64,000 nt of DNA. It comes from Candidatus Cloacimonadota bacterium (GTDB lineage: Bacteria; Cloacimonadota; Cloacimonadia; G963667145). Each line of letters opens with the position of its first letter. The first letter of the stretch is position 1. The stretch lies in assembly GCA_963667255.1 (NCBI GenBank), contig OY762940.1, positions 1,440,001 through 1,504,000 of the forward strand, given 5' to 3'. A program made the translations under genes and the position numbers. This document shows positions 37,883 to 40,825 of the stretch, piece after piece. The notes under the pieces are model-generated. The model saw only the letters and a list, made by a program, of their open reading frames with translations, was not told the origin of the DNA and made no database searches.

Positions 37883-37989
37883 GTCTCTCTCCTCTATACA
37901 ATAAACTTTATTTTGATGACATAAATTTAATACCGTCAAAATCACAGTTCTTTAAAATTTGGCAAGAAAATTTGATTTGCCTTTTTTTC

Positions 37990-38084
37990 CTCGCTCCCAA
38001 GCTCCAGCTTGGGAGTGTATGCTTATCAATAACCTGCTATAAATTAAGTAGATATGCATTCCCAAGCTGGAGCTTGGGAACGAG
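37990..38084. repeat. REP/REPIN-like doublet, family A, most intact copy
   Basis: ctcgctcccaagctccagcttgggagtgtat...atgcattcccaagctggagcttgggaacgag. Confidence 0.85.
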
Positions 38085-38236
38085 GGGGTAAGGCGTGGTG
38101 GTATGAGAATGAGGGTAGTGATGCGAGAATGTAGGCGGTGGGAGGTGCAGGAAGTGGGTGGAACAAAAAACACTGTCGAGTTCCCAACTCGACAGTTACC
38201 TCGTCCTGAAAAAAGTGGACTCTATTAGGAGGAAAC

Positions 38237-38623
38237 TTGGACAAAAGAGAGAAAACTTTTAGATATTCAAAAGCTTTCAGAAATGAGGTTCTAAAGAATG
38301 TCAAAAACAAAAAATTGACGGTTTTGGAAGCGGGTAAATATTATGGAGTGGGATTTCCAACTATTTATCGATGGTTGAAAAAAGCTAATTATGACACGCC
38401 CTGTAAGGAGGTAATTTTTGTGAAACTATCAGATCAGCACTCTGCTTTGCAAGAGATTGAGGAGTTAAAAAAAGAGAATCGTGCTTTAAAAGAGGCTGTG
38501 AGCAAGTTAACGCTCGATAAATTGTGCCTTGAAAAGTGTGTAGAAATTGGTGAGCGGGACTTTGGTATGGAATTAAAAAAAAAGCCCGAAGTACAGGAAT
38601 TGAGGAAATCAGGCAGAAAATAG
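38237..38623 (+). CDS. IS3 OrfA (HTH + coiled coil)
   Basis: RYSKAFR...YGVGFPTIYRWLKK; A9G slippery run at about 38575-38584. Confidence 0.88.
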   Translation: MDKREKTFRYSKAFRNEVLKNVKNKKLTVLEAGKYYGVGFPTIYRWLKKANYDTPCKEVIFVKLSDQHSALQEIEELKKENRALKEAVSKLTLDKLCLEKCVEIGERDFGMELKKKPEVQELRKSGRK

Positions 38624-39468
38624 TGGAGAAAAAGTTCCCTTTTAAAATGAATTCTGTTTGTAAATGGTTTGGGATTAGCAAGTCCGGTTTTTATAAAAAG
38701 AAGAAGCACATCGAAAAAACAAAGAAAATTGAAGATGAGATTTGCTTGCATATAAATGCGTTACGCAAATTTGGACTTATGTGTGGAGCAAGAAAAACCA
38801 AGATTCATTTAAAGGAAGATTTTGACATTATTGTGGGCAGAGATAAATTGTTTGATATTATGAGAGAAAACGATTTGCAAAGTAAATTTATTAGGAAAAA
38901 AGTTCAACATTCCAGTGGAGTTAAGCAAATCTTTGAGAATATGTTAACCGATGAATTTAAGAAATCTGTTACAAAATTTGGGCAAGTAATTGTGACAGAT
39001 ATTACCTATATCAAATTGCCCAATAATAAGTTCTGTTACATTAGTTTAGTTACGGATTTGGCTACCAGAAAAATTTTGGGGTATAATGTGGCTCAAACTC
39101 TTTTGGCTGAAGAGTCGGTTAAGGTTATGCGGAAGACATTGAAAAAATATAAGTTGCCTAAAGATTGCATACATCATAGTGATAAAGGAGTGCAATATAC
39201 GAGCAAATTATACACTGATTTTTTGAAGAAAAATAATTTTAGAATGAGCATGACAGGTGCGGGCAAATGTTATGATAATGCTTGTGCAGAGCGAGTTTTT
39301 AATACTTTGAAGAACGAATTTGGTTTTAATGCTGTTTTTTCAAGTTTGAAGGAAGTGCGAAGAGAGTTGAAGAATTTTGTTGATATTTATAACAATAGAC
39401 GATATCATATGAGTTTGGACTATAGAACACCGCAAAGTGTGTTTTTGGAGATGCAGAAAGCTGCATAA
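38623..39468 (+). CDS. IS3 OrfB (rve integrase), -1 frame relative to OrfA
   Basis: TDITYI, HHSDKGVQY, DNACAER.F.TLK.E, YN..R.H.SL. Confidence 0.92.
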   Translation: MEKKFPFKMNSVCKWFGISKSGFYKKKKHIEKTKKIEDEICLHINALRKFGLMCGARKTKIHLKEDFDIIVGRDKLFDIMRENDLQSKFIRKKVQHSSGVKQIFENMLTDEFKKSVTKFGQVIVTDITYIKLPNNKFCYISLVTDLATRKILGYNVAQTLLAEESVKVMRKTLKKYKLPKDCIHHSDKGVQYTSKLYTDFLKKNNFRMSMTGAGKCYDNACAERVFNTLKNEFGFNAVFSSLKEVRRELKNFVDIYNNRRYHMSLDYRTPQSVFLEMQKAA

Positions 39469-39686: not shown

Positions 39687-39712
39687 AAAAAAAGCCTCCT
39701 AATCGGAGGCTT
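39687..39712 (-). terminator. Terminator after lipoprotein gene
   Basis: aaaaaagcctcc taatc ggaggctt. Confidence 0.7.
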
Positions 39713-39728
39713 AGTTTCTATTTTTATT

Positions 39729-40178
39729 CTATTGCTTCGTATAGATATCAGCACCTGTCCAACTAGAAGAATTGGTGGCATTATAGAATTTTGAATTTTC
39801 AATCTTATAATATGAAGTCCGAGTTTCTGAGCCACTGCTTGTTTCTGAATTAGAATTATCAATTTGTCCATTTATGTATACTTTTTTTGTATAGTTGTAA
39901 GCAGCAACTAAAGTTTTAGGATTTGTTGAAGTATTCGTAGAAAAAGTCCCTTCCATAGATGTAATTGAATAATAGTTTTCATTAGTAACTTTTTTGCGAT
40001 ATCTAGTAAAACTACCTGAACTACTAACGACTATTCTTTCATAACCATTATTATCTAATGACATATACCATGTACCCACCAAATCAGGGTCAATAGAACT
40101 GTCATTACTCGTAGAGCTACCACATCCAACCACTCCACACAGCATTACTAATACTGTTAATATCATCAATTTTTTCAT
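39729..40178 (-). CDS. AT-rich lipoprotein, possible lipocalin-like beta-barrel
   Basis: MKK + hydrophobic core + VVGC lipobox, Ser-rich linker, LVGTW; RBS gagg. Confidence 0.8.
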   Translation of the reverse strand: MKKLMILTVLVMLCGVVGCGSSTSNDSSIDPDLVGTWYMSLDNNGYERIVVSSSGSFTRYRKKVTNENYYSITSMEGTFSTNTSTNPKTLVAAYNYTKKVYINGQIDNSNSETSSGSETRTSYYKIENSKFYNATNSSSWTGADIYTKQ

Positions 40179-40209
40179 TCTTTCCTCGCTTTTTTTATTT
40201 TTTAAACAC

Positions 40210-40247
40210 AAAAAAAGAGACAGCCCGAAAAATCCGAACTATCTCTT
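40210..40247 (-). terminator. Intrinsic terminator/attenuator in the lipoprotein leader
   Basis: AGAGAUAGUUCGGA-UUU-UUCGGGCUGUCUCU stem followed by U tract, about 30 nt before the lipoprotein start. Confidence 0.8.
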
Positions 40248-40274
40248 AACTTATATAAAATTCTATTGACTACA

Positions 40275-40373
40275 TCATAACCACACAGCCTCGACTGACC
40301 GACTGACCGACTGACCGACTGACCGACTGACCGACTGACCGACTGACCGACTGACCGATTTATTTATTTTCAT
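40275..40373 (-). CDS. Putative repeat-containing leader peptide MKINKSVSRSVGQSVSRSVGQSVSRSVEAVWL
   Basis: ATG 28 nt downstream of TTGACA (40402-40407); spans the 8-bp repeat. Confidence 0.5.
   Translation of the reverse strand: MKINKSVSRSVGQSVSRSVGQSVSRSVEAVWL
40293..40358. repeat. Perfect octamer tandem repeat (GACTGACC) x8
   Basis: Counted directly. Confidence 0.97.
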
Positions 40374-40490
40374 ACAGCAACAATTTGATTATTTTTACAT
40401 CTGTCAACACGAAATTACGAAAAATTACTATATTGTATCAGCATTATGCTTGGGCTTACTGCTACTCCCTTCCCTCTTACCTGCTCGCTC

Positions 40491-40602
40491 CCCTCATGCC
40501 CGTGAAAACGGGTATCCATTCTTGGCTCGTCTCTTAAAAAAAGCAAGTGCCAATGTCCCAACCCTATCCCCGACTGGATTCCCGCCTACGCGGGAATGAG
40601 GG
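40491..40602. repeat. REP/REPIN-like doublet, family B
   Basis: ccctcatgcccgtgaaaacgggtatcca ... tggattcccgcctacgcgggaatgaggg; each arm is a hairpin and the arms are inverted. Confidence 0.75.
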
Positions 40603-40651
40603 AGGTTTGGGATTCCTACCATTCTATTTCTCATGCCCGTTGTCTATCTTG

Positions 40652-40685
40652 CTCTCGCTCCCAAGCTTCAGCCTGGGAGCGAGAG
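40652..40685. repeat. Single family-A REP palindrome
   Basis: ctctcgctcccaagcttcagcctgggagcgagag. Confidence 0.75.
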
Positions 40686-40776
40686 AGAAAAGGCAAACAA
40701 CAAAGATAGTCATACATCGTAAACAACACACAGGTTTCGCAAAACCATTTATAAAGAGAGCAATCCTACCCCAAAT

Positions 40777-40804
40777 AAAAAAGTGAGCCTTTTCAGGCTC
40801 ACTT
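40777..40804 (-). terminator. Terminator after ppdK
   Basis: aaaaaagtgagcct tttc aggctcactt. Confidence 0.8.
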
Positions 40805-40825
40805 CCATTATTATATCTAACTAAA

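Follow-up and report, generated by a model that had tools for sequence, protein, structure and literature searches.

The window, a stretch of 64,000 nucleotides, was analysed together with its host genome, a single contig of 1,587,896 bases labelled G000. On the minus strand of the window, a gene for a lipoprotein-like protein lies downstream of a pyruvate phosphate dikinase gene. Read in the direction of the gene, the features of the locus are as follows:

40779-40806, minus strand: terminator-like hairpin 3' of the upstream pyruvate phosphate dikinase gene, a predicted insulator of the leader cassette.
40402-40407, minus strand: predicted -35 element TTGACA, from the promoter matrix score and the genome promoter profile; a canonical -10 is absent, as is usual for this genome.
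40275-40373, minus strand: leader ORF, 32 codons at repeat number n=8, with ATG 40373 at the predicted +1 and the stop TGA at 40277-40275.
40293-40356, minus strand: perfect tandem repeat (GGTCAGTC)x8, found with TRF; 8-nt unit.
40270-40272, minus strand: TAG, stop of the n=7/10 frame.
40266-40271, minus strand: RGTCAA motif, invariant across cassettes; the opposite strand reads TTGAC.
40210-40247, minus strand: predicted intrinsic terminator, a 15-pair hairpin (about -18 kcal/mol by structure prediction) with a T7 tract.
40202-40204, minus strand: TAA at which the n=6/9 (read-through) frame ends, past the T tract.
40184-40189, minus strand: SD-like GCGAGG of the lipoprotein gene (GAGG at 40187-40184), from the sequence.
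39729-40178, minus strand: lipoprotein-like gene, 149 aa, ATG 40178, with a hydrophobic signal and Cys19.
39692-39712, no strand assigned: bidirectional terminator-like hairpin closing the lipoprotein gene, by terminator prediction.

Every landmark of the preliminary description was found where it had been placed, from TTGACA (40407-40402) and the leader ATG (40373) through the eightfold repeat and the hairpin with its U tract to the ATG at 40178. The leader ATG lies 28 nt past the TTGACA hexamer, a TTGAC-to-ATG distance of 34 nt, and no SD motif precedes it at positions -20 to -4, in agreement with the earlier reading. TRF assigns the GGTCAGTC array 8.4 copies with 100% matches and a score of 134, the highest among its 46 rows for the window, and the unit does indeed lack stops in all three sense frames. 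The hairpin spans 40247-40215, with the T7 tract at 40216-40210; in the fold prediction its 15 pairs have probabilities of 0.66-1.0, and 13 of them reach at least 0.91. Between 37500 and 41500, none of 16 weak Rfam matches attained the gathering score, and no known Rfam leader or riboswitch was found. Short palindromic intergenic elements, apparently repeated, occupy 40470-40710 and 37969-38103; they give many partial contig matches and chance matches to Rfam microRNAs.

A script that varied the repeat number reproduced the leader frames as previously assigned. With n=2, 5, 8 or 11 the leader stops at TGA 40277, with n=1, 4, 7, 10 or 13 at TAG 40272, and with n=0, 3, 6, 9 or 12 it crosses the hairpin and ends at TAA 40204. 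The stops of the n=8 and n=7 frames lie 27 and 22 nt before the stem, respectively, both more than 20 nt, as had been claimed.

With the promoter matrix, TTGACA at 40407 scores 5.2, compared with a leave-one-out median of 2.8 for the training sites. A sigma-70 scan listed no promoter at 40407 because the canonical -10 is missing. Many tRNA genes have TTGAC in the 80 nt before them but lack a fixed -10. In a profile of 111 promoter-like sites, an AT-rich block precedes TTGAC, and the downstream A signal is strongest at offset 34 (A 0.58). Promoters of G000 appear to rest on TTGAC and this AT-rich block, their -10 being very degenerate. Across the 12 homologous cassettes described below, the TTGAC-to-ATG distance is 34-35 nt in 11 (one of them measured across an IS), and the twelfth has TAGAC instead, 32 nt from its ATG. 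None of the 11 intact cassette leaders has an SD motif at -20 to -4, so that initiation would be leaderless. In the genome at large, TTGAC stands 34-38 nt before the start of 29 among 1165 long ORFs that begin with ATG, compared with 31 over 17 flanking positions; against about 9 expected, this gives a Poisson P of 1e-7, for a range of distances picked post hoc and with crude first-ATG gene calls. An SD motif precedes one of these 29 ORFs, compared with 555 of the 1136 others, and about 29 genes of G000 look leaderless. From the ATG to the array end, 11 cassette leaders contain no in-frame stop and 21 off-frame stops (product of the shuffle tests 0.0015 for 10 mutually related leaders). As judged from these related sequences, this bias is the strongest, though indirect, support for a real start at the ATG.

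The preliminary description had pointed to a genome search for further non-triplet repeats between an ATG and a terminator, and this search was productive. Under the cut-offs used, G000 has seven long perfect repeats. In five, the unit is not a multiple of three, and all five are flanked by an ATG-proximal leader and, on the far side, by a related hairpin, in cassettes homologous to that of the window; the remaining two (9-nt and 3-nt units) are located inside coding sequence. An in-frame 9-nt repeat, present seven times at 1329830-1329892, encodes a Pro/Thr linker in another lipoprotein-like gene, where variation in length would cause no frameshift. Apart from the window copy, the cassettes of the genus are:

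G000, 63,445: GTCA x30, assembled in the read-through frame.
G000, 131,256: TCAGT x18.
G000, 983,710: TCAGT x22.
G000, 1,390,818: TGGTCAGT x9.
G000, 898,159: GTCA x5, a sixth copy added by BLAST.
G001: two cassettes (21 and 9 units).
G002: two cassettes (one 4-nt and one 7-nt unit).
G004: one cassette.
G005: one cassette (GTGC unit).

In total, five of the six genus genomes harbour 12 homologous cassettes, six of which are in G000. A covariance model built from eight post-repeat segments and searched in the six genomes gave 24 matches, which on inspection of all of them comprise the 12 cassettes and 12 terminators without a repeat; eight of the 12 cassettes built the model and therefore match by construction. 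The repeat units are 4, 5, 7 or 8 nt long, never a multiple of three, and free of stops in the sense frames. Among the 30 listed matches to a 5-to-9-nt CAGT pattern in the five relatives there was no perfect 6- or 9-nt array, and a TCAGT x3 pattern matched in none of the five. In G003, no cassette was found by covariance-model and pattern searches. Outside the genus, a search of 135 Cloacimonadota genomes with the RNA model (stricter filters, 26 candidates scored per genome) found no cassette, its two weak matches both being gene-end terminators, and a DNA search of 35 genomes of the same class found none either, giving short, uninspected matches only. A metagenome pattern search returned 11 matches, none with an upstream repeat, and a viral pattern search returned none.

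Three of the six G000 cassettes are damaged, by an IS within the leader, by an IS before the gene, and by loss of the 3' arm and T tract, respectively. One leader is split by an IS with an 8-base target duplication, and at 898 kb an IS separates the cassette from its lipoprotein gene. An IS with a 352-aa ORF is found at 131346-132475 and 898280-899400, inserted in two of the six cassettes; about 19 near-identical ends of this element occur in G000 (19 matches). Both TCAGT cassettes (131256 and 983710) lie within a few kb of an rRNA/tRNA block and have a downstream 127-aa gene in common, and they differ in cargo, with an EcsC-like and a 133-aa gene at the former and two long genes, the first dynamin-like, at the latter. 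This arrangement suggests cargo exchange at a variable locus.

Downstream genes are lipoprotein-like in nine of the 12 cassettes: their products have a hydrophobic N-terminus and a Cys at around residue 20. In five of 11 sister genes a lipobox pattern was found, and the other lipoprotein assignments were made by eye. One downstream gene has a signal peptide only, and the two exceptions, EcsC-like and dynamin-like, both stand behind damaged cassettes. Domains of the cargo include FGE-sulfatase-like, C-type lectin, F5/8 type C and PPC. In G001, two paralogous lipoproteins with C-type lectin domains (L135 and L129) have a cassette each, of 21 and 9 units. The lipoprotein-like protein of the window has no Pfam family over the cut-off; a lipocalin-like Atlas match (0.93, 164 shared features) offers no more than a lead, and a search of a large protein set for near-length homologues returned, among 21 candidates, only the protein itself. 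A homologue in G001 (51%) and two paralogues in G000 have no cassette directly upstream; one paralogue sits two genes downstream of the 1390-kb cassette. In a Cloacimonadota relative (L050), whose pyruvate phosphate dikinase is 92% identical (next matches at most 66%), the aconitase gene comes immediately after that for the dikinase, and cassette, lipoprotein gene and IS are all missing. The relative's locus, the G001 homologue and the paralogues together imply that the cassette is a module gained, or kept, before particular genes. The IS of the window (38237-39468), with HTH_Tnp_1 and rve integrase-core ORFs, lies between the lipoprotein and aconitase genes. The cassette behaves as a module before different surface-protein genes, each of which is predicted to switch independently.

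Comparison of the cassettes indicates that the hairpin is conserved as a structure, with compensatory changes. In an alignment of eight cassettes, five of 12 pairs show double-sided changes and 90.5% of cells pair, a level reached by 15 of 500 shuffles, whereas slid controls are 33-47% paired; the consensus structure was derived from the same alignment on which it was scored. As for the reading frames, in each of the 12 cassettes one stop precedes the stem by at least 24 nt and another lies at most 7 nt from the stem or beyond it, and some frame enters the stem in 10 cassettes and passes it in eight. That exactly one frame spans the hairpin is true of the window copy but not of the whole family, as in two of the 12 cassettes, at 898 kb in G000 and in G005, no frame enters the stem and the latest stops lie 1 and 7 nt before it. 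For each cassette, about half of the shuffles also yield one frame that crosses the hairpin and another that stops early, and this pattern is therefore weak evidence by itself. In shuffle tests of the frame geometry, all 12 cassettes, treated as if independent, give P values of 0.01-0.21; with seven cassettes that represent the lineages P is 0.07-0.35, and with the seven that are least favourable it is 0.07-0.73. The geometry is compatible with attenuation and no proof of it, and is not significant once kinship is allowed for.

We propose, with a probability of about 0.7, that the element in the window is a phase-variable transcription attenuator upstream of the lipoprotein gene. The mechanism had been put forward in the preliminary description; the anatomy, the 11 further homologous cassettes and the SD-free genes with the same TTGAC-to-ATG distance speak for it, while the frame geometry, taken alone, falls short of significance. 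According to this model, transcription would start at the leader ATG and ribosomes would load onto the 5' end of the RNA. Slipped-strand mispairing is an established behaviour of such repeats; it would be the source of changes in repeat number here, and through slippage in the 8-nt repeat the leader would change frame, such that one of three frames lets the ribosome cross the predicted terminator. At n=8, the assembled state, the ribosome would stop 27 nt before the stem, the hairpin would fold and the gene would be OFF or leaky. In the n=6 and n=9 states, the 5' arm would be covered by a trailing ribosome, and RNA polymerase would reach the lipoprotein gene (ON). A modelled ribosome footprint is consistent with this view, with the hairpin surviving at n=7 and n=8 and lost at n=9. 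In the pil1 locus of S. gallolyticus, a leader stop 4 nt before the hairpin is described as giving high expression and stops at least 28 nt before it as giving low expression (PMC3894217). By this yardstick, the n=8 state is probably OFF; the n=7 stop, at 22 nt, falls between the distances reported as tested in pil1, and the modelled footprint leaves its hairpin intact.

Evidence on the repeat number itself comes from reads and from relatives. Contigs of three DNA runs (at most two samples, possibly including the source sample) match the window without mismatch, and contigs of four runs end at the array. For the two contigs of repeat sequence, the ratios of their depth to that of the flanks are 4.9-5.4 and 3.8-4.3, where n=8 predicts 5 and 4. 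The mean is thus about eight units in the three runs, with no shift in repeat number seen, by a rough depth measure to which minority alleles are invisible. In the two G001 paralogues, promoter and leader are identical and the post-repeat segments 94% identical, and the arrays have 21 and 9 units; the difference of 12 units amounts to an in-frame 48 nt. Such a pair shows that the repeat changes, on an evolutionary time scale only.

The attenuator model leaves one conserved feature unexplained. The RGTCAA motif is invariant in all 12 cassettes, 18-22 nt past the array, whichever frame is open; it may act in pausing, in protein binding or as an antisense element. GTCAA does not mark terminators in general: it occurs 11 times at 18-30 nt before 297 terminator-like sites, and five of these occurrences are cassettes. 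The motif could be the -35 of an antisense, convergent promoter, or a protein-binding site that forms a pair with the sense TTGAC, the repeat setting spacing or helical phase and the ORF being incidental. GTCAA is indeed kept throughout, despite flanks only 40-94% alike, promoters of G000 rest mainly on TTGAC, and in 10 of the 12 cassettes an nAnnnT hexamer was seen by eye 13-14 nt from the antisense TTGAC. The antisense sites, however, resemble generic intergenic TTGAC and not promoters in their score, with a median of -0.45, compared with 0.5 for other intergenic sites, 3.3 for the sense sites and 2.8 for the training set; their sixth base is never A, whereas it is A in 62% of promoters; and both the terminator and the reading-frame bias would go unexplained. 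This is the least probable account of those considered. An inversion switch, or an inverted repeat for recombination, was rejected, since the two TTGAC copies have only five to six letters in common and no co-variation of their flanks was seen by eye.

Slightly better, but still improbable, is the view that the repeat acts at the RNA level without translation, its length altering leader folding, stability or small-RNA pairing. Translation of the SD-free leader is a prediction, and there is a precedent in the leader G-repeat of Helicobacter pylori tlpB, described as a target of RepG (PMC8295292). In folds of the nascent RNA, moreover, the stretch just past the repeat pairs weakly with the 5' arm. 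Yet this pairing is not conserved by eye, units that vary from 4 to 8 nt, GTCA-based or GTGC, would not be tracked by a single small RNA, and the fixed position of the ATG, the stop bias of 0 to 21 and the non-triplet units would have no explanation. We give a similarly small chance to the cassettes being mostly relics or simple dampers, in which a leaky terminator allows low constitutive expression and the repeat drifts without regulatory effect. The damage to half of the G000 cassettes, the near-chance frame pattern and the cassette-free homologue of the window gene in G001 would fit; but it is only at the cassette position that perfect arrays, with as many as 30 units, persist, the hairpin shows compensatory changes, and the window copy is intact. 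A broader form of the attenuator model is also on the unlikely side, although less so than these alternatives: a genus-specific leaderless switch module would have been copied before surface genes, its unit evolving from 4 to 5, 7 or 8 nt for a gene-specific switching rate, and RGTCAA would be a convergent promoter or a pause element that synchronizes ribosome and RNA polymerase, or would drive slippage by transcription of the repeat from the opposite side.

Other leaders of the genus were noted as well. In four genomes, a Met-rich leader ORF (7-9 Met) and a terminator precede a homocysteine-synthesis gene (PF01837), at G000:C1:1410137-1410387 (minus strand) and at L134, L143 and L145; in the three relatives tested, the nascent RNA has an alternative antiterminator fold. 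Met codons in a leader, combined with a terminator and an antiterminator, are the layout of classical amino-acid attenuation. The Met-rich leader is thus a candidate methionine attenuator in Cloacimonadota, and would suggest that ribosome-coupled attenuation works in this lineage. For the cassettes, a classical amino-acid attenuator, with its run of regulatory codons matching the downstream pathway, was considered and rejected, as the codons of the leader are those of the repeat and vary from homologue to homologue, and the cargo is not biosynthetic. In G002, a leader that resembles an FMN riboswitch by eye, with a terminator, precedes a RibD-like gene (L150, G002:C1:1513900-1514165).

If the proposed model is true, a switch that in the literature searched is proven only in S. 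gallolyticus extends to a reduced-genome lineage of Cloacimonadota. Such switches escape scans for repeats within coding sequence or promoters. The 12 natural copies with their varied unit lengths offer a panel for the effects of unit size and stop-to-stem distance on switching, and the leaderless genes, together with the Met-rich leader, give indirect hints of transcription-translation coupling in a phylum that is largely uncultured. No description of this cassette family, or of anything on this genus, was found in the open-licence literature, where a flagellum preprint was all that was found on phase variation in Cloacimonadota.

The principle itself has a precedent. The preliminary description did not recognize the combination of repeat and attenuator as a named system, which is wrong: for S. 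gallolyticus pil1, attenuation was proven by terminator deletion, ATG and RBS mutation, stops in three frames and chloramphenicol (Danne 2014, PMC3894217), and the same source reports the same layout for pil3. As described there, pil1 and pil3 have in common with the cassettes a non-triplet repeat in a short leader ORF, followed by a hairpin with a T tract and a gene for a surface structure, a repeat number that moves the leader stop relative to the terminator, and several loci per genome. No relationship in sequence is evident, and the Pfam families of the downstream genes are not the same. They differ in the repeat, which is GCAGA in pil1 and pil3 and a GTCA-based unit of 4-8 nt in the cassettes of another phylum, and in the cargo, which consists of sortase pili in pil1 and of lipoproteins at the cassettes. 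The pil1 leader is reported with an RBS, unlike the cassette leaders, which are devoid of an SD motif and probably leaderless. Two of three frames are ON in pil1 and one of three at the window locus, whereas most sister cassettes look like two of three. Unit length itself varies among the cassette homologues, unlike in pil1 as described (PMC3894217), and function was tested in pil1, while the cassettes are known here from their sequence. With another unit, no RBS, and a different cargo and phylum, the cassettes would work like pil1 and pil3 without being their homologues.

Two further systems share part of this design. In mycobacterial leaderless short-ORF attenuators, the position of the ribosome on an ORF at the 5' end determines the expression of downstream genes (Canestrari, 10.1101/834739). 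The leaderless short ORF at the 5' end is common to these attenuators and the cassettes; the mycobacterial system, however, is described as using cysteine-responsive stalling and RBS sequestration, and its abstract mentions neither a repeat nor phase variation nor a terminator. Like the cassettes, H. pylori tlpB tunes expression through a variable repeat in the mRNA leader, as outlined in PMC8295292, but by small-RNA pairing instead of a leader ORF and terminator. As the principle has already been published for S. gallolyticus (PMC3894217), the cassettes of Cloacimonadota would represent a variant of it, with an apparently independent leaderless design.
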